Shown: positions 8,949 through 24,261 of the stretch, in pieces
Position numbering within the stretch: the first letter of the stretch is position 1
How the letters are laid out: the number at the start of each line of letters is the position of its first letter
Assembly (NCBI GenBank): GCA_031426555.1
Contig: JANPLN010000022.1
Span: 1 to 25,594 of the forward strand
Reading direction: 5' to 3'
DNA from: Bdellovibrionales bacterium
GTDB lineage: Bacteria > Bdellovibrionota > Bdellovibrionia > Bdellovibrionales > JAGQZY01
DNA: 25,594 nt
Notes under the pieces: generated by a model
The model's database searches: none
What the model was told of the DNA's origin: nothing
The model's input: only the letters and a program-made list of their open reading frames with translations
Translations under genes and position numbers: made by a program

Positions 8949-9850
8949 TGTCTCTTCTCCAAAATCGAATTGACCACACGATAGGTGTTCGCATAGGCCT
9001 CAACAGTTTTTTCAATAGGTTTTGCGTACCCTCCACCCAAGGCTAACGAAATAGGGATGTTGGATTGCAATGCGTATTCGAGGACAATTTTATCTCTCTC
9101 CATAAGTCCCGCAAAACTTAAGGACATCTTTCCGAGGGAATCGTAAATCAAGGGATCCACTCCAGTTTGGTAAAAGATAAAATCGGGGTTAAAATTTTCA
9201 ATACTCTGCATGCCAACATTGAGAGCTGCCAGATACTCCTTATCCTCAACTCCCGTGGGCAAAGCCATATCCAGATGCGACGGAACTTTGATAAATGGAA
9301 AATTCTTTTCACCATGAATGCTGAAGATAAAAACATTTTTATCTTTGCCAAGAATGCTCGAGTTCCCGTTACCCTGGTGCACGTCGAGATCGATAATGGC
9401 AATGCGGAGATCAGGATTTTCGCGGTGAAAGTACCGAGTCGCCACGGCAATATCGTTAAACACACAGTAGCCGCCCCCAGCATCGTAAAGCGCATGATGG
9501 GTCCCTCCCGCAAGATTGCCGGAGATGCCGTCTTTAAAAGCATTCTTGGCTGCGGCCAGCGCCCCGCCAACGGTGGCACAACTTCTTAAAAAAAGATTGT
9601 AGCTCCATGGAAACCCAATTTTTTTAATCATGAGAGGGTCCACAGAGCCATCTCTTATGGAGGCGATGTATTGGGGATGGTGAGCCAAGAGGAGTTCGTC
9701 CTCTGTGGCCAGCGGGCTTTCGATGAGATCCGCAGCAGCTATTATTTTGTGTTCGAGCAAGTAATCACGAAGTTGTTTATATTTACTCATCGGAAAGCGA
9801 TGAGTGTCAGGCAACTCAAGGGAGTAATAGTCCGAGAAAAAAACCTTCAT
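8945..9850 (-). CDS. Histone deacetylase family Zn-dependent amidohydrolase (class IV/HDAC11-like)
   Basis: HRFPMSKY, NLAGGTHHA, GYCVFNDIAV, DLDVHQGNG, GVDPLIYDSLG, LGGGY. Confidence 0.93.
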   Translation of the reverse strand: MKVFFSDYYSLELPDTHRFPMSKYKQLRDYLLEHKIIAAADLIESPLATEDELLLAHHPQYIASIRDGSVDPLMIKKIGFPWSYNLFLRSCATVGGALAAAKNAFKDGISGNLAGGTHHALYDAGGGYCVFNDIAVATRYFHRENPDLRIAIIDLDVHQGNGNSSILGKDKNVFIFSIHGEKNFPFIKVPSHLDMALPTGVEDKEYLAALNVGMQSIENFNPDFIFYQTGVDPLIYDSLGKMSLSFAGLMERDKIVLEYALQSNIPISLALGGGYAKPIEKTVEAYANTYRVVNSILEKRQ

Positions 9851-9858
9851 AAGTCCTA

Positions 9859-9887
9859 AAGTTCTGTTTCTAGGGGACCAATGTCAA
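9859..9887 (-). promoter_or_regulatory. Putative sigma70 promoter for HDAC-HAD (leaderless or very short leader)
   Basis: Perfect TTGACA-17 nt-GAACTT, 8 nt before ATG 9850. Confidence 0.5.
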
Positions 9888-9895
9888 GTGTCGGC

Positions 9896-10846
9896 TCAGA
9901 AAAGCTCTTGGTTCAGATCTAAATTGATAGGAAGGAGCTCTACTTCGGGAATAGTAAAACCAAAGGCTTTCGCTGCGGAGGAGATTGTTTGCTCGGCACT
10001 CCCGGTTGTGTAGTATTTTTGCGACGGAGACTGGGCGGGAGCCAATTTAAGATGCAATTCATTGCTCACGATCACCGCAGGATCCACCAAGGTCCATTTT
10101 GGAAAAAGTCGGGTAATGTGGTTTTCCACTGCGGGGTAATGTGTGCAGGCCAGGACTAAAGCGTCGAATTGGTTGATGTCATATTTTGCAAATATTCTGC
10201 GGAGCATTGGTAGCACATCCTCGTCAGAAAGCATCCCAGCTTCAATCAGCCCCGAAAGCGGTTGAGCGCTTTGCTCTGTGACGTCCAACTTTGATAACGA
10301 ATCGCGATAAATATGCGATTGCACCGTGGCATCTCCGCCAATAACACCAATGCGCTGAAAGGAGCTCACGCGCAAAAAACGAATTGCGGGTGTGATGACA
10401 TCGTAAATCGGAGCGTGGAAATTATTTTTATATTGCACGCGCAAGTCGGCCTTTTGCAAAACTTCTGAACTCGTTTGTAAAAGTGCAGCACTGGCGGCGT
10501 TGCAGGCCACCACAATGCCGTCACAGCCTTTGGACTCGAGCCAGTGAAATATTTTTTGCAATCGTTGTGTGAGCTCGACCGCAGACAACGTTCCGTAAGG
10601 TGTGAAGCCCGCATCGGAAAAATAAGTGATTTGCAAATTCGGTTCGTGTTTTAAAACCTCGGCCAGCACAGTGAGACCACCTATGCCCCAATCCACAAAT
10701 CCTAAGTGGGAATGCTTTACGGGTACGATAGGCTCTCCACGTGCTTTGAATGCACGGGTCCTGTATCGAAGGCGATAATGCGCGAGTTCCAGCCCACATT
10801 GAGCAATTCCACTTTTTGGCCTGGAAAGCGACTTTCCAAATACCAT
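9896..10846 (-). CDS. murI: Glutamate racemase-like (Asp/Glu racemase family), variant active site; true start uncertain
   Basis: LGFVDWGIGGLTVL, SDAGFTPYG, VVACNAAS and LACTHYP (both catalytic Cys present). Homology begins near 10710; the nearest upstream ATG/GTG/TTG start is ATG 10846, 130 nt inside the upstream gene. Confidence 0.8.
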   Translation of the reverse strand: MVFGKSLSRPKSGIAQCGLELAHYRLRYRTRAFKARGEPIVPVKHSHLGFVDWGIGGLTVLAEVLKHEPNLQITYFSDAGFTPYGTLSAVELTQRLQKIFHWLESKGCDGIVVACNAASAALLQTSSEVLQKADLRVQYKNNFHAPIYDVITPAIRFLRVSSFQRIGVIGGDATVQSHIYRDSLSKLDVTEQSAQPLSGLIEAGMLSDEDVLPMLRRIFAKYDINQFDALVLACTHYPAVENHITRLFPKWTLVDPAVIVSNELHLKLAPAQSPSQKYYTTGSAEQTISSAAKAFGFTIPEVELLPINLDLNQELF

Positions 10847-12660
10847 TTCATTTCATGTTCCGAGCGAATGGGATTGTAGGCCAACATTTTTTTCCAAGCT
10901 GCGGACTGAACCATTTTTTTAAGCGGCGCCGAAAACTGCTGCTGAGTTAAATTTTGCATCACCTGGCGGGTTTTCGATTGCACGAATTTTGGAGTTTCAG
11001 CGATTTTTACCGGAGCGGCCACCATATCTAACACCAAAAAGCGTCCACCGGGCTTTAACACGCGCAAGATTTCTTTCATGCACGGGTCCCAGTCTAAGTA
11101 GCGAAACGCCAAGGTCGACATCACCACATCAAAAGAGTTATCAGCAAACGGAACACGGGGACCGTTGATTTTTTGAAAAGAGAGTTTTGAATTCGAACGT
11201 CGGCACTTTTGCGCCTGGGCAATCATTCCTTGCGACAAATCAACGCCCACGCCATTTGTAAAGTGTGGAGACAGTTGATTGAGAAACGCTCCATTGCCAC
11301 AGCCAATATCCAGCACGCTTTGTGGTTGAAGTTGAGCGAGCTTGCTCTCCAGCCACACCAGTTCGTCAGAGCGCACCTGAATATCTTGAAAGGTGTCTTC
11401 GTACATCTCGGCCACGGAGTCATAAGTCGTGTCCGCAGTCTCTTCCGAAGGTTCAAAGGCTAACATTTTATCTGCAGGGCAGAGCTGCGAGTATTTTTTG
11501 ACCGAGCCTAAAACACCGTGGGATTTTTTACCAGGGCAAGCGATAATATACAGATTCTTTTTGCTCGCTAGGGGATGCAGTTTTTCCCAGGCAAATCGAT
11601 CGGGGCGACTCGAAACAGTCGTGTAGTTGTGGTACCCATGGGCTTTTACCTTGAGAGTGCGCGCGATAAACGGCGCAAACCAACGACCCGACCGGCAAGC
11701 GTGGAAGAAAAATTCAGAGCTTTGCAAAATTGGCAGCTGCATGGTTTTCCATTCAAACGGGCTAAATTGCTCGGGCCACTGACGGCTTCCAAACATGATT
11801 CCATACATTCCGCTATGACCAAAAAAATGAAAGTTCTTAACCTGGAAATTATTTTTCTTAAGCTCGGCAAAAATTCGCAAAAAATCTTTTTTCGATTCAA
11901 CACGTTCGCACACCACAGGTCTTGCTGCCACAGCGCTGAGTTCGCGAGCTTTGGTTTGCGCCGCTTTTTCAAACTCCCGTCCACCCTCGCGATAGTGCGT
12001 GGTGTACATTATCAAATCGCAGTGGCCCTGGAGTGCGATGGCCGTCGGGCTTTGCACCGGCCAGGCTTGCTCTTCGAGAATTTCACGAGTGTCATTAGGA
12101 ACCCAGGCACCGGTGTCATCAGAAACTGTAAAGGTAGTGCGAGATTTCAAAGCATAAACTTTCATACGATGGATCGGCGGATTATAAATATGCAGAGTGA
12201 GTCCATCAGTGTCCAAGCAGCGCATGGAGTGAATGTCGCCTTGCTCTACCGGAATCAAATCACCGGGGGCGTAATGGACGTGTTTGTCGTAGGCTTCAAG
12301 GCCCGAGTCAGTAAAGCGATAACCGGTCTCAATGTAGTTTCCTTGTAAAACGAAAACATACCCATTGGAGGAGCCGTGATCGTGGGGAAGGCATTCTTCA
12401 CCCTGCTTCCAGCTGGCGACCATCACTTCGAGTGTGTCCGTCACGATAAGCTTGTTGCGATAGTAAGATTCCTCGGGGCGGAGTGGTTCTTGAATAAATT
12501 GTTGCAGAGGTTGAAGTTCCATCTTCAGCGCGTTTAAAGTTGCAGAATGTTTTGGATTTTGTAAAAAGCGTTGGACCAAACTTTGGAGCGATGAAGAGCT
12601 TGCGGTTGTGGCAGAGTTTATGGAATCATATGCTGCATTGGAAGATGCGTTTGTAGACAT
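10717..12660 (-). CDS. Three-domain fusion: cysteine dioxygenase-type cupin + caspase-like (clan CD/DUF4347-like) His-Cys domain + class I SAM-dependent methyltransferase
   Basis: Likely ATG 12660 (GAGG SD). CDO: YYRNKL, W...PHDHG, IHSM, LHIYNPP. Middle: FHFFGHSG ... FFFHACRSG. C-terminal: VLDIGCGNG, GVDLSQGMI, PFADNSFDVV, RVLKPGG. Confidence 0.8.
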   Translation of the reverse strand: MSTNASSNAAYDSINSATTASSSSLQSLVQRFLQNPKHSATLNALKMELQPLQQFIQEPLRPEESYYRNKLIVTDTLEVMVASWKQGEECLPHDHGSSNGYVFVLQGNYIETGYRFTDSGLEAYDKHVHYAPGDLIPVEQGDIHSMRCLDTDGLTLHIYNPPIHRMKVYALKSRTTFTVSDDTGAWVPNDTREILEEQAWPVQSPTAIALQGHCDLIMYTTHYREGGREFEKAAQTKARELSAVAARPVVCERVESKKDFLRIFAELKKNNFQVKNFHFFGHSGMYGIMFGSRQWPEQFSPFEWKTMQLPILQSSEFFFHACRSGRWFAPFIARTLKVKAHGYHNYTTVSSRPDRFAWEKLHPLASKKNLYIIACPGKKSHGVLGSVKKYSQLCPADKMLAFEPSEETADTTYDSVAEMYEDTFQDIQVRSDELVWLESKLAQLQPQSVLDIGCGNGAFLNQLSPHFTNGVGVDLSQGMIAQAQKCRRSNSKLSFQKINGPRVPFADNSFDVVMSTLAFRYLDWDPCMKEILRVLKPGGRFLVLDMVAAPVKIAETPKFVQSKTRQVMQNLTQQQFSAPLKKMVQSAAWKKMLAYNPIRSEHEMKWYLESRFPGQKVELLNVGWNSRIIAFDTGPVHSKHVESLSYP

Positions 12661-12823
12661 GCTTTGGACCTCTATAGATAGATGATCTTGTAACACATCA
12701 CATTAAGCTTAAAGCACTGAAAATATTACAATCGGGACAAGAATTAGTTTAGAAAGGGCTTTTACATGGACAATAACACGCCGCTCAACTAAACGTCCCA
12801 GTGTCTAATTAAAAGGAGATTGT

Positions 12824-13219
12824 ATGAAATTATTTTTAGGTTTGGTTCTTTTGGTATCAAGCATGGCTTTCGCAGGTTCCACTTCTGGAACAAAGTTACA
12901 AAAACAAGTTGTTAAAATGGGAACGTGTGCTGGTAAATACGCTCTTGAAGGAACTGAAGTGACCTTCACGACCGAGAAAAAATCTGTTTACGGTCAAAAA
13001 GCAAACATGCTGATGATGACGTTTGCTCCAGGCGCTTATGCTGCTGATGCTTATACAACGGACGATGCTTACTCTTACACGATGTCTGATGAAGAGGGCG
13101 AAGCTGTTTCTGTTGCCTACAGTCCTTGGAAAGTAACAGGATCAAAAGTTCTTGTATACGTTCAGGGTGAATGGCTTTCATTAACTATCGGATTTAAATC
13201 TAAGACTTGCTGGTTTTAA
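12824..13219 (+). CDS. Small secreted hypothetical protein
   Basis: AAAGGAG SD, signal peptide MKLFLGLVLLVSSMAFA-G, codon usage suggesting high expression (GCT/ACT/TCT/GGT), own terminator. Confidence 0.85.
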   Translation: MKLFLGLVLLVSSMAFAGSTSGTKLQKQVVKMGTCAGKYALEGTEVTFTTEKKSVYGQKANMLMMTFAPGAYAADAYTTDDAYSYTMSDEEGEAVSVAYSPWKVTGSKVLVYVQGEWLSLTIGFKSKTCWF

Positions 13220-13255: not shown

Positions 13256-13285
13256 AACCCGCTAATGAGCGGGTTTTTTGTTTTT
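13256..13285 (+). terminator. Rho-independent terminator
   Basis: Hairpin AACCCGCT-AATG-AGCGGGTT followed by TTTTGTTTTT. Confidence 0.85.
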
Positions 13286-13298
13286 GGAGCCTGATCAT

Positions 13299-14795
13299 AT
13301 GCGTTCTCTCATTAATTTTGAATCTCCCAGCGGAGCTAGAATTCAAAGTCATATTCAGTGGCTTGTGCCCTTTGTTTTCGCTCTAGTGCTCTTTGCTTAT
13401 CTACTCATTCAATCGGTTCCTTCTGGCGTTAACGGTTACTTCTATCTTAAGCAGATCAAATATTTTTTCGAAACAGGTCAACTGTACTTTCAAGATCGAT
13501 CATTGGCATTTTCGCTCCCATTTATACTTCGATATTTTCTACCAACCGATCTTTTAGCTTATCACTTGAGTGTGGGCGTTTTGCTCACAGCATTTTGTGT
13601 TTTGCAAGGACGAATGGCTCTGCGCTTGGCTCATTGTTTCACGTCCAATTCCGCTCCCAATTCCACCGCAATTACCACGTCTCTCAAAAACACTTTTTTG
13701 ATTGTGCTGCTGCTCACGGTGCTATTTTTCACTCACCCGCACATTCTGTTTTTTGGACTTAATTTTTATAAAAATCTTTTTGCTGTGGTGTTCGTTTTGC
13801 TTGGAATCGATCAACATTTTGTATTTACAACCACTGCTAAGAAAAAATCTATAGCGATTTCGATCCTGGCTTTTGTCGTCGCTGTATTGGCCCATAAAAG
13901 CAGTTTGATATTGTGCGGGGCATGGATGGTGGCGGCCTTTGTTTTCCATTTTCAAAAGCAGCGAAGGTTTTTATTACTTGTGCCGGTGCTGCTTGCAGTT
14001 CTGTTTGTGGCGTTTCTATTTTATTTTCCCCGAGCCTCTGCCTATATTTCGTTTTTGCAATCGGGGTTTCATTTTTCTACCGATTACGTATTATGGCTAA
14101 AGAGTCAGACGCGCCTTGGGAATTTTATTTTTGGTGGGTATATCACGCTGGCAGTTTTGGCAGGCTACCTCATTGTCACGTTTAAAAGTGCAAGCACGCC
14201 ATTTCGTGTTTACGGCCTGTGGATGTTGAGCGTTTTGTTATTTGCGCTTTTGCCTATTCACTCCATCGGGCAGAATCAGTTGGGATATCGGTGGTTGTTA
14301 ATGAGCTTAGGGCTTTCGCTGCCTCTGGTGGCGGCCGTGTGCGTGCGTTACCGATTTATCGGCGGCATACTTCTCGGGTTGCATCTAGGGCAGTGGATGT
14401 ACGCGGTTCCACTGCATCGTTATTTTTTAGATTTTCAAAAGCATCAAGAAAACTTTCAGCAAATTACAAAATTTGTCGACGGCGAGGATTATCTGATCGC
14501 GCACCACGGTTTGGAATTTTACATCGATTACACCACCGGCCTTCGTGCCCGTATCTTTCTGCCCGAAAGTAAGCCCGCAAACGGAGAGGTCTTCCGCATC
14601 GTGCATGTTCCCTTCGGCGCCCTCCGCTGGCAACCCCTGCGAATCGCAGTGAATCAAAGAGCCATCCTCCGGATCACCCGCGAATACTTTTTACTCACCG
14701 AAGCCCAGTGGCTCGACGCCCGCAAAGCCGCCATCTTCCCTCCCGAAAGCTGGCAAATCCCCATGGACAAAAACCCCGGCCACGTCTACCAGTAG
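13299..14795 (+). CDS. Polytopic membrane protein, possibly GT-C-type glycosyltransferase-like
   Basis: ATG 13299 with GGAG SD; about 11-12 hydrophobic segments; conserved-looking first loop PSGVNGYFYLKQI...GQLYFQD; soluble C-terminal domain (LIAHHGLEFYIDY). Confidence 0.6.
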   Translation: MRSLINFESPSGARIQSHIQWLVPFVFALVLFAYLLIQSVPSGVNGYFYLKQIKYFFETGQLYFQDRSLAFSLPFILRYFLPTDLLAYHLSVGVLLTAFCVLQGRMALRLAHCFTSNSAPNSTAITTSLKNTFLIVLLLTVLFFTHPHILFFGLNFYKNLFAVVFVLLGIDQHFVFTTTAKKKSIAISILAFVVAVLAHKSSLILCGAWMVAAFVFHFQKQRRFLLLVPVLLAVLFVAFLFYFPRASAYISFLQSGFHFSTDYVLWLKSQTRLGNFIFGGYITLAVLAGYLIVTFKSASTPFRVYGLWMLSVLLFALLPIHSIGQNQLGYRWLLMSLGLSLPLVAAVCVRYRFIGGILLGLHLGQWMYAVPLHRYFLDFQKHQENFQQITKFVDGEDYLIAHHGLEFYIDYTTGLRARIFLPESKPANGEVFRIVHVPFGALRWQPLRIAVNQRAILRITREYFLLTEAQWLDARKAAIFPPESWQIPMDKNPGHVYQ

Positions 14796-21311: not shown

Positions 21312-23105
21312 TTGGCTAAATCTCAAATTACGTCCAGCAGTACGGCGGAATACTTTGCCAAAAACTTGCAACAGGTTGGGTTTTCTTCGCCAACAAAAGC
21401 GGTCCTAACAACTCTTAAAGAGGCCGTTGATAATTCTCTCGATGCCTGCGAAGAGGAAGACATCCTTCCGATGTTGGACATTTCAATCAAGCGGCTGGGT
21501 ACAGGTGGCAGTAAAAATACAGATCTTATTGAAATCATCGTTGAAGATAACGGACCTGGTTTAGAGGCAGATATGCTTCCGCAGGTGTTTGGTGAGTATC
21601 TTGCGTCTTCCAAATTTGGTCGCGGTCGCTGCACCCGCGGTCAACAGGGGATTGGGATTTCGGCGGCCACCACGTGGGCGCAGTTAACCAACGCGTCGGG
21701 TGTGCTAGTGACCAGCAAAACCGCAAAAATGAAAAAAGCCGTCCGCGCGCAAGTGGATGTGGATATTAAGGGTAACAAAGGGTTGATGAAAAACAAAGAA
21801 ACCATCGACTGGAACAAACCCCACGGAACAAGAGTGGTGTTTCGCATCGATGGCCGAATACAATTAAATGGTGACGGCGGGTTGTTGACCTATCTTGAGG
21901 GAACAACACTGGTGAATCCCCATCTGGAGTTAAAATACAAATTGCTCGATTCGGAGACCGTGCATATCAAGCGCGTGAGCGAACAGAATCCGGATATTCC
22001 CACAGCCACTCTTCCGCACCCGCACACAATGAAGCTGGGCGAGTTTATAACCCATGCGGGGATTTATGGAAAAATCACCTTTGGTAACTTTTTAAAAACT
22101 GCTTTTTCGCGAGTGACGGATGCAACGCTCAAGGATTTCGTCACAAATAAAATGCCAAAAAGTTTACTCGTTAAACCTCTTACGCAAGTCAAAGAGGCTG
22201 ATTTTAAAGCCGCCTATCAAGCCATACAATCAACAGAACTTCCAAGTCCTTCCACTCGCTCAGTATTAACTGTGGGCGAAGATTCCCTTTCAAAAAGTAT
22301 TATGCGCCTTGGAGACATCGATTTTTTTAGTGTGGTGGCTCGCAAGCCGACTATCTGTGATTTTAAACCGGTGGCGGTCGAAGTAGCTCTCGCGCGCTTT
22401 TTAGGTCGTGGCAGCGAAGACGGGCAAATTCAACTTCTGCGTTTTGCGAACCGTGTTCCCTTGCAGTTTGATAAAGGCGCCTGTGCCATCACCAAAGCCA
22501 TTGAGTCGGTGAACTGGCGAGCCTACGGACTGGCACAATCCAAAAACACCCTCCCTCAGGGACCCTATGTGTTTGCGATCAGTCTTGTGTCGCCGTTTAT
22601 TAAATTTAAAAATGCGTCCAAAGAAACCATCGACGCCAGCGACGAGCTGGTGGAAGAGATTCGTTTGGCCGTGATGCGTGCGGGACAAAAGCTATCCCGT
22701 CATATCAATCGCGAAACCAAAGCCGCTGATCTCGAAAGAAAAATTCAACACATCGAGCAATTTGGTCCTATTTTAGTGGAGACGTTGGCTCGATTGGTAA
22801 AAGCCCCCGAAGCCCGCAAAAAACGCGCGCGTGAGGGACTAGAAAAGATTTTAGGTCGCGATTCGAAGGCTGCCGAAAAAGATCTTGATGTGGCAGATAC
22901 GCGCCTCAAAGAGCTTCGCGCAAAAATGCGCGAGCGCGGTATCGTGGGCGAGGATTTCCGTTCCAAAGACGACTCAATCTCCGATGCTTATAGTGAAGAA
23001 GATATTGGTTCTAGTGAAGACACAAGTGTGGATGAAGTCGTCGTGAGTAAAAAACAAAGTAAAAAGAAAAAGCGTGCGGGCAAAGAAGAGGTAAAAAATG
23101 TCTAA
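21312..23105 (+). CDS. top6B: DNA topoisomerase VI subunit B
   Basis: TTG start with AGGAG SD; GHKL motifs KEAVDNSLDA, EDNGPG, RGQQGIGIS; RFANRVPL, WxxY (NWRAYGL), transducer KFKNASKETI. Confidence 0.93.
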   Translation: MAKSQITSSSTAEYFAKNLQQVGFSSPTKAVLTTLKEAVDNSLDACEEEDILPMLDISIKRLGTGGSKNTDLIEIIVEDNGPGLEADMLPQVFGEYLASSKFGRGRCTRGQQGIGISAATTWAQLTNASGVLVTSKTAKMKKAVRAQVDVDIKGNKGLMKNKETIDWNKPHGTRVVFRIDGRIQLNGDGGLLTYLEGTTLVNPHLELKYKLLDSETVHIKRVSEQNPDIPTATLPHPHTMKLGEFITHAGIYGKITFGNFLKTAFSRVTDATLKDFVTNKMPKSLLVKPLTQVKEADFKAAYQAIQSTELPSPSTRSVLTVGEDSLSKSIMRLGDIDFFSVVARKPTICDFKPVAVEVALARFLGRGSEDGQIQLLRFANRVPLQFDKGACAITKAIESVNWRAYGLAQSKNTLPQGPYVFAISLVSPFIKFKNASKETIDASDELVEEIRLAVMRAGQKLSRHINRETKAADLERKIQHIEQFGPILVETLARLVKAPEARKKRAREGLEKILGRDSKAAEKDLDVADTRLKELRAKMRERGIVGEDFRSKDDSISDAYSEEDIGSSEDTSVDEVVVSKKQSKKKKRAGKEEVKNV

Positions 23106-24261
23106 GATGATTCAAGTTCGTGAGCAAACGAAAAATATTCCTCATGAAGTTCGAGAAATTTGCGACAAAATGCTTAAAGATTTGGAGCATGCCAAGCGTC
23201 CAACGTTGGATGCCATTAAGTGCACCTTGGATAATAGTTTTTATAACCCCAAAGTTGGGTTTTTAACTCCTGGTGATAAGATGGTGACCACGGAGCTCAA
23301 TGTCTCTTCCGTTCAAAAAATGGCGCGCGTTGTTTTTTTAATGGAAATTCTTTTGCGCAACATGGATATCGGCTCAGTAAATACCAAGCGCGAAATTTAT
23401 TATATGGCGAAAGGTTTGGTGAGGTCCGAAAAAAATCTAAAGGCATTGGACTTTGATGATCAAAATGAAAGTGATTCCATTATTGATTTTATCTGTGACC
23501 TCTTAGAAGTTTACCGCGAGGAAATGAACTGTTTTGCCAACGATCGAGGGGGGCAGACCTACTCGCAGCAGTTGGTTGTGCACGAAACCATGGCCGATGG
23601 GGAAAAAGCGACCATCGATCTGAGCACCTTGGGTACCTCGCCGTTTCAACCAAAAAATCGACCGCAATCGTTAAAGATAAAGACCAAGGGCAAAGTCGAT
23701 TTTTGTTTGGTGGTGGAATCAGAAGGTACGGCAAACACGTTGGTCGCAAACGGAATGACCAAACGCCACCGCTGCATCGTTGTGGGTGCCCAAGGGGTTC
23801 CGAGCAACGCTGTTCGCGGCTGGGTGCGCACGATCCAAAACCAACTGGATGTTCCCATTTACTTCTTTGGCGATTTGGATGCGTACACGTTGCAAAACAT
23901 CTACCGCACCTTGAAGGCGGGCTCCGCAGCCAGTCTGATTCGAAATAGCGATTTTTCCGCTCCCGAAGTGAACTTTTTGGGTGTTTTGCCCGAGGACGTG
24001 AAAAAGTATGATCTGCACTGTTACAAAGTGAACGAACACGATATCAAAGAAGGACGCTCTTTAAAAAAGGCCAAAGATGCTCTTAAAAACGACCCATTCT
24101 TTCAAGATAAGAAGAATCGCAAACTTTCGGATATCTTGAACTGGCTAATCAGTGAAAAGCTGCGCTGTGAGCAGCAGGCGCTCTACTCGGTGGACCCAAA
24201 AGATCCACACATTTGCGAAAAGATTATCGTCGACAAGATTAAACGAAAGATCTTCGTTTAA
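23098..24261 (+). CDS. top6A: DNA topoisomerase VI subunit A (Spo11 family)
   Basis: TKREIYY (catalytic Tyr), FDDQNESDSII, TOPRIM VVESEG and GDLDAY (DxD), EQQAL; overlaps the top6B stop by 8 nt. Confidence 0.93.
   Translation: MSKMIQVREQTKNIPHEVREICDKMLKDLEHAKRPTLDAIKCTLDNSFYNPKVGFLTPGDKMVTTELNVSSVQKMARVVFLMEILLRNMDIGSVNTKREIYYMAKGLVRSEKNLKALDFDDQNESDSIIDFICDLLEVYREEMNCFANDRGGQTYSQQLVVHETMADGEKATIDLSTLGTSPFQPKNRPQSLKIKTKGKVDFCLVVESEGTANTLVANGMTKRHRCIVVGAQGVPSNAVRGWVRTIQNQLDVPIYFFGDLDAYTLQNIYRTLKAGSAASLIRNSDFSAPEVNFLGVLPEDVKKYDLHCYKVNEHDIKEGRSLKKAKDALKNDPFFQDKKNRKLSDILNWLISEKLRCEQQALYSVDPKDPHICEKIIVDKIKRKIFV

Follow-up and report, generated by a model that had tools for sequence, protein, structure and literature searches.

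A methyltransferase and an adjacent paralogue of glutamate racemase (MurI) form the conserved unit of a bacterial gene cassette in which a caspase-fold peptidase domain is usual and a cysteine dioxygenase (CDO) is optional. The cassette lies in a stretch of 25,594 nucleotides from a Bdellovibrionales bacterium (assembly GCA_031426555.1, contig JANPLN010000022.1; genome size 3.14 Mb), referred to here as the window, where the whole of it takes up two genes and 2.8 kb. The first gene (10717..12660, minus strand) encodes a protein of 647 amino acids that joins a CDO, a caspase-fold His/Cys domain and a class I S-adenosylmethionine (SAM) methyltransferase, and the second (9896..10720, minus strand), which overlaps its stop codon, encodes the racemase paralogue. 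An earlier note on this DNA had taken the triple fusion as the unit and had overlooked the racemase gene. The fold of each module is known, and their combination is a previously undescribed, widespread cassette; a literature search, with subscription journals mostly outside its coverage, found no description of it. The cassette is tentatively read as a cytoplasmic pathway to a methylated D-amino-acid metabolite derived from cysteine sulfinate, or to a short peptide.

The fusion gene and the distribution of the cassette

The minus-strand frame is open throughout 10717-12696, which confirms the single uninterrupted open reading frame (ORF) first described, and all three module assignments hold. 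Residues are numbered here from the Met at the ATG at 12660, which homologues at 85-94% identity share as their start. Since these close homologues begin at that Met, the residue numbers in the earlier note were 12 too high, whereas its codon positions for the catalytic His (11815-11817) and Cys (11695-11697) were right. The AlphaFold model of the full protein has a mean pLDDT of 91, with low confidence at the linker (residues 203-210). The closest relatives of the gene belong to Bdellovibrionales metagenome-assembled genomes. A search for fused or split homologues, which the earlier note had proposed, found the same three-module fusion in 20 of the 120 homologues listed. As these come from independent assemblies, the triple fusion is no assembly artefact. 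One contig of run X1 also spans 9800-12701 with zero differences from the window, though it is not independent support because X1 may be the source sample. Promoter and terminator counts in the window are at chance (7 found vs 6.7 and 6.8 in shuffles), and no signal-like or transmembrane stretch was seen in 121 proteins, one of them borderline.

The distribution was surveyed in a one-genome-per-species collection, where 377 stretches contain the core; the best 80 of these 377 and the window make up the 81 loci counted here. A quick tree places 79 of them, and these span nine phylum-level groups. The racemase gene lies within 800 nt after the methyltransferase in 73/81 loci; six others end at a contig edge, and two (L009, L070) are without it. 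The reverse search, a metagenome scan limited to the best 80 of 537 loci, yielded 20 paralogue-type and 60 canonical racemases, with a methyltransferase directly upstream of 16/20 of the former vs 0/60 of the latter. Among the remaining four paralogue-type racemases, two are cut within ~100 nt and two (L091, L110) show no methyltransferase. In five proteins (P0221, P0269-P0272) methyltransferase and racemase are fused. Four short proteins joining middle-domain and racemase pieces look like assembly chimeras and were left out of the counts.

The dioxygenase adjoins the core at the same position in 36/81 loci, fused in 15 and as a separate upstream gene in 21; it is non-adjacent in the other 45, at least three of which end at a contig boundary. 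Along the tree, fused and separate states interchange at least five times, and presence and absence change seven times. Between the dioxygenase and each remaining module of the cassette, pairwise identities correlate at Spearman 0.59-0.64, as they do between methyltransferase and racemase (0.56). The window fusion is nested among separate-gene Bdellovibrionota loci on the quick tree; judged from these sequences, the triple fusion is a recent local event inside the widespread cassette.

Strong matches are patchy, occurring in 6/301 genomes of the phylum. Three of the five other genomes of the genus have the cassette, and the two without it are 97-99% complete. No relatives were found in viral contigs, plasmids or GenBank phages, and a metagenome scan with P0221 found nothing. 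PADLOC defence models gave no system match beyond a match of the methyltransferase region to mad2.

Modules of the cassette

The methyltransferase (residues 406-647; 10717..11445, minus strand) is a complete class I enzyme, as had been proposed. Pfam Methyltransf_11 matches residues 450-543 (E 2e-23), G453 and G455 of the glycine-rich motif I and the acidic D474 after strand 2 are present in 121/121 sequences, and the Rossmann-like fold is recovered at Z about 18. Y413, Y420, R430, E433, R520, Y521, D523, W524 and D545 are invariant, and the motifs RYLDWDP and NPxRxEHE are specific to the family. Its structural neighbours, mostly small-molecule enzymes, score equally well (Z 17-18), so that the structure does not point to a substrate; NovO, DhpI, CmoA, Rv0560c and BelI/CysG share the fold at Z 16-18 and ~20% identity, and none stands out. 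The ESM Atlas returned generic clusters only, and a Foldseek search with the full-length model was swamped by the methyltransferase. The lid of the enzyme is basic, with a median net charge of +8. Ten proteins have either a dead His/Cys dyad (n=6) or no peptidase domain (n=4): P0148, P0169, P0171, P0194, P0221, P0226 and P0269-P0272, five of which are fused to a racemase. All ten have lost His602 (codon 10855-10857 in the window) and have kept the other invariant methyltransferase residues. Across the aligned sequences, His602 is thus tied to the peptidase dyad, being kept only with it.

The racemase paralogue scores 121.5 bits against TIGR00067, below the equivalog cut-off of 146.65. It resembles MurI in its two-cysteine dyad, Asp10, the PYG and CTHY motifs and Glu160, and also retains His194; both catalytic cysteines (Cys73, codon 10502-10504; Cys192, codon 10145-10147) are present in 60/60 paralogues. 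It differs from MurI in score, in its pocket and in being a second copy. In the window, Ser is replaced by Trp at position 11, Thr by Ala at 75 and Thr by Gly at 129. According to the clean alignment A4, on which the racemase counts rest, the paralogues have Trp in 55/60, Ala in 55/60 and Gly in 60/60 at these sites, against Ser in 59/60, Thr or Ser in 60/60 and Thr in 60/60 of the canonical enzymes. In PMC12744344, the Ser11, Thr75 and Thr117 sites are named as key residues of the pocket. Since three key pocket residues are remodelled, the substrate of the paralogue is probably not plain glutamate. A separate MurI above the TIGR00067 cut-off is encoded by 25/30 hosts, and the window's genome has one on another contig (C16). 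The start assigned to the racemase gene here is provisional: it corresponds to an ATG in L003, but the codon reads GTA in L001, L002 and the window (10718-10720), where the longest racemase ORF begins at 10846. At a Mycobacterium asiaticum locus (L071:9689-10682) the racemase gene splits over two frames.

A precedent for an epimerase belonging to the Asp/Glu-racemase family and coupled to a methyltransferase is the OpaE/OpaF pair of oxepinamide biosynthesis (PMC12661438). Like the paralogue, it has a more hydrophobic pocket; unlike it, OpaE/OpaF is fungal, belongs to the allantoin-hydantoin branch, acts on a nonribosomal peptide synthetase product and is accompanied by no peptidase or dioxygenase.

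The middle domain (residues 213-405; 11446..12024, minus strand) has no match in Pfam, NCBIfam, PDB profile, PHROGs or PADLOC searches. Folded alone by AlphaFold, it reaches a pLDDT of 92.8 and a pTM of 0.90. The caspase-like fold assigned to it earlier is borne out by structure searches. Foldseek gives SAVED-CHAT, a metacaspase, caspases, MALT1 and Raptor, only clan CD proteins among the matches listed (best E 7e-4). The top VIA matches are the T6SS (type VI secretion system) effector Tce1 (9QPE; Z 11.3, rmsd 3.3, 149 aligned) and SAVED-CHAT (8TL0; Z 11.3, rmsd 4.2, 158 aligned), minimal peptidases with the same dyad of a His and a Cys that each follow a strand. Legumain, metacaspase, caspases and GPI transamidase rank next; the top 37 rows are all clan CD, and it is only at rank 38 that an unrelated fold appears (Z 7.4). 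His282 and Cys322 occur without exception (121/121 sequences), and in the model both directly follow a strand. By its model, the domain has the caspase-hemoglobinase fold of clan CD but belongs to no named family. In line with this, no Pfam match over the cut-off was found in the query for C14, CHAT, C80 or DUF4347; DUF4347 is touched by 1/80 members at E 0.23, and in the ESM Atlas all clusters that came up lack a name, a lead among them having 17% DUF4347 (score 0.89). A self-cleavage site at Asp410 was considered and not adopted because this residue is conserved in only 110/121 sequences.

A profile search with the middle domain collected 191 representatives. RHS or YD repeats occur in 12 of the 64 representatives scanned with Pfam, with the homologue of the middle domain at the C-terminus, and an HHalign comparison with one RHS protein reaches 99.1% (E 7e-19). 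Both His and Cys are retained in 50/50 relatives outside the cassette. The RHS C-terminal domain family (P0172, P0176-P0179, P0197, P0220, P0246, P0260 and others) carries SH(S/A)GxxGP and GC motifs and has no Pfam match. The cassette links this family to a soluble relative that is accessible in cultured hosts, such as the carrier Paraliomyxa miuraensis SMH-27-4 (L032), and that lends itself to activity assays. Polymorphic toxins carry C-terminal caspase-like domains, and Tox-Caspase is described as a processing or toxin domain in a survey whose family list may include the present one (PMC3482391). Tce1 and Tce2 are presented in PMC13323088 as putative cysteine proteases whose targets are not known. 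The group to which the middle domain belongs otherwise serves in secreted effectors. Unlike Tce1, CHAT, C80 and Tox-Caspase, the window domain has no secretion signal or repeats and is fused to a methyltransferase in a metabolic-looking cassette; its flanks are CDO and methyltransferase domains rather than those of a polymorphic toxin or T6SS effector. Three secreted-looking Bdellovibrionota proteins of ~400 amino acids (L087, L088, L089), with GHS and HGCN motifs and weak matches to the middle-domain profile, represent another unnamed caspase-fold-like family. The weak matches at phylum level (9/301 genomes) are other proteins, the four inspected (L087-L090) not being cassette genes.

The dioxygenase module (residues 56-200; 12061..12495, minus strand) matches Pfam CDO_I over residues 64-169 (E 6e-7; 29.6 bits vs a cut-off of 23). 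Its best PDB match is Bacillus subtilis CDO (E 1e-11; VIA Z 15.5, rmsd 2.7, 148 aligned). The cupin with a full set of CDO residues that the first description reported is thereby upheld: Tyr66, Arg68 (codon 12457-12459), the iron triad His93/His95/His144, His157, Tyr159 and Gly100 are kept in 35/35 aligned cassette copies (36 loci have a copy, one of them a fragment). Tyr66/Arg68 and His157/Tyr159 are the equivalents of CDO Tyr58/Arg60 and His155/Tyr157, and Gly100 replaces the eukaryotic Cys93, a change that bacterial CDOs show according to PMC10989515. B. subtilis CDO (3EQE/4QM8; PF05995) likewise is a cupin with a three-His iron site, Tyr-x-Arg, His-x-Tyr and Gly for Cys93; it differs in being a single domain of ~170 residues, whereas the window module is fused to the peptidase-methyltransferase and coupled to the racemase. 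In CDO, Arg60 salt-bridges the carboxylate of L-cysteine, and it is not conserved in ADO, which oxidizes peptides with an N-terminal Cys, as PMC8503633 states. The substrate-binding Arg that is missing from ADO/PCO enzymes is invariant here. Because the carboxylate-binding Arg and Tyr are retained, the cassette dioxygenase is classed as Arg-type, with free cysteine as its most likely substrate. A second CDO-like cupin lies on another contig of the host (C35, ~30400-30750), in the same frame as what appears by eye to be a pyridoxal phosphate-dependent decarboxylase, a pattern of the taurine-type pathway.

A candidate pathway and competing explanations

In the tentatively favored pathway, the dioxygenase would first oxidize free L-Cys to cysteine sulfinate, a mimic of Asp and Glu. 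In loci without a CDO, the substrate could come from another dioxygenase or another gene, or could be a plain acidic amino acid. The methyltransferase would then cap the acidic side chain, turning the sulfinate into a methyl sulfone or ester, or would methylate a carboxyl group. The racemase, its pocket relieved of three hydroxyl residues and filled with a Trp, would invert the alpha-carbon of the modified residue before or after methylation. In the last and weakest step, the His282/Cys322 domain, together with His602 of the methyltransferase, would release the residue from a short peptide or transfer it to one, cutting or forming an amide bond on the peptide that carries it. A more specific version is considerably more doubtful: here a caspase-fold domain from secreted effectors would have been domesticated into cytoplasmic small-molecule metabolism as an ATP-independent amide-forming or amide-cleaving enzyme, within a four-activity pathway whose product is a cysteine-sulfinate residue in D-configuration, methylated to a methyl sulfone or a sulfinate ester. 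Neither MurI-family racemases nor methyltransferases nor clan CD enzymes are known to perform such chemistry. Were the favored pathway correct, it would mean that a caspase-fold enzyme acts on small molecules, that a MurI paralogue has taken on a new substrate and that cysteine sulfinate feeds a biosynthetic route in bacteria. Since the cassette consists of two genes in 2.8 kb, it is directly testable.

What is established directly is which domains are present, that their catalytic residues are conserved, how they are linked and which of them are dispensable; the role of every module in the pathway and the substrates are read from sequence and models, and several observations count against them. 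Among 67 scanned neighbours, there is no recurring transporter, ligase, regulator or precursor peptide. The middle domain has secreted effector-type domains as its nearest relatives, and clan CD enzymes are known as protein endopeptidases or transamidases rather than as small-molecule enzymes. The tied structural neighbours of the methyltransferase act on unrelated substrates, and no SAM enzyme is known to methylate a sulfinate on sulfur. In the 45 genomes where no dioxygenase adjoins the core, PF05995 is matched at another place in 23 and nowhere in 22, although these are mostly incomplete genomes and the search missed the known copy of L040. Cysteine sulfinate therefore cannot be assumed for every member. 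Of the two options in the earlier note, a methylated sulfur amino-acid metabolite is the better fit, qualified by the loci that lack the dioxygenase.

Tailoring of a peptide or protein is the alternative that survives best, unlikely as it is. According to this explanation, a protein or peptide of the host is cleaved by the caspase-fold domain, and the acidic residue now at its N-terminus is epimerized by the racemase and capped by the methyltransferase, while the dioxygenase handles free cysteine aside. The effector-type relatives of the clan CD fold and the co-variation of His602 with the dyad agree with such a scheme, a pocket without the counterparts of Thr75 and Thr117 could have room for a peptide, and OpaE is a family member that acts on peptide derivatives (PMC12661438). 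However, no conserved precursor gene appears among the scanned neighbours, the ten forms without an active peptidase keep the methyltransferase, and the repeated fusion of the dioxygenase is left unexplained.

It is quite unlikely that the cassette serves detoxification, in which an incoming amino-acid-analogue or small-peptide antibiotic would be hydrolysed, inverted to the D-form and methylated, and thereby inactivated. A self-contained cassette in shifting genomic contexts, its patchy spread across the phylum and genus, the lack of an exporter, and the place of Rv0560c, a methyltransferase of the resistance type, among the structural neighbours with tied scores would suit this role. Yet the cassette is not on plasmids or in the phages searched, its tree mostly tracks phyla and the dioxygenase has no clear part in it.

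The chances are slimmer still for editing of peptidoglycan precursors, for example as protection against lytic effectors. In that case an analogue of D-Glu would come from the MurI paralogue, the methyltransferase would block an acidic group on the stem peptide, and trimming would fall to the peptidase. The MurI family origin of the racemase, the basic methyltransferase lid, the endolysin-like N-terminal piece of a distant middle-domain relative (P0245), and YARHG, amidase, NlpC/P60 or DacB genes near some loci all point in this direction. These wall-related genes are confined to certain lineages, though, and make up a small share of the 67 neighbours scanned; no Mur ligase is linked, and hosts retain a canonical MurI.

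It is improbable that the dioxygenase just rides along, functionally unconnected to the methyltransferase-racemase pair, and that the triple fusion is a recent read-through of neighbours. The nested position of the window fusion would allow it, as would the lack of an adjacent dioxygenase in Bacteroidota, Acidobacteriota and Gemmatimonadota loci, but the constant position of the gene in several phyla, its intact active site, the repeated fusions and its co-inheritance speak against it. An N-degron-like route, the other option of the earlier note, would have the cupin oxidize a Cys laid bare at an N-terminus by cleavage, with methylation to follow. It would account for a peptidase fold and a thiol dioxygenase in one chain but is very improbable, because the dioxygenase keeps the Arg that binds free cysteine (with its Tyr, a mark of free-cysteine enzymes absent from ADO; PMC8503633) and has CDO_I and CDOs as its Pfam and PDB matches. 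The route also leaves the racemase, the most constant partner, without a place.

Genes around the cassette

The neighbour scan covered 67 genes, mainly same-strand flanking ones, out of 145 picked, and apart from the recurrences given here neighbours vary between loci. A gene for a DUF6356 mini-protein (65-75 amino acids, three conserved His and a Cys) directly follows the racemase in ten loci (L023, L033, L043, L052, L069, L073, L077, L078, L100, L114), none of which has an adjacent dioxygenase. This protein may replace the dioxygenase in loci that lack it. Within 15 Bacteroidota genomes, a CDO match is present in 0/8 with DUF6356 vs 4/7 without (Fisher p 0.026, an overstated significance because the genomes are kin). 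Occurrences of DUF6356 outside the cassette (2/81 genomes) and its one mention in the literature revealed no function.

Divergently from the fusion gene, the window encodes a multi-pass membrane protein (13278..14795, plus strand) with ~9 hydrophobic segments and no Pfam or NCBIfam family, which resembles GT-C glycosyltransferases; the ORF at 12824-13219 (plus strand) lies alongside it. Such a gene adjoins the cassette in 12/81 loci, divergent in nine Bdellovibrionota-type loci and on the same strand in three Cytophagales loci, sometimes with YARHG or amidase genes. The protein is a possible accessory of the cassette.

Directly upstream of the core, a radical SAM gene is found in L018, L063, L105, L117 and L075 (two Pyrinomonadaceae, one Desulfuromonas and two metagenome contigs). 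The sole context seen that resembles that of a precursor peptide is L038:5950-7921, where a DUF692-like enzyme, a partner and a 68-amino-acid Cys-containing ORF, all labeled by eye, directly precede the core. Elsewhere in the window, 21312-24261 holds genes for the B and A subunits of topoisomerase VI, here in a bacterial genome.

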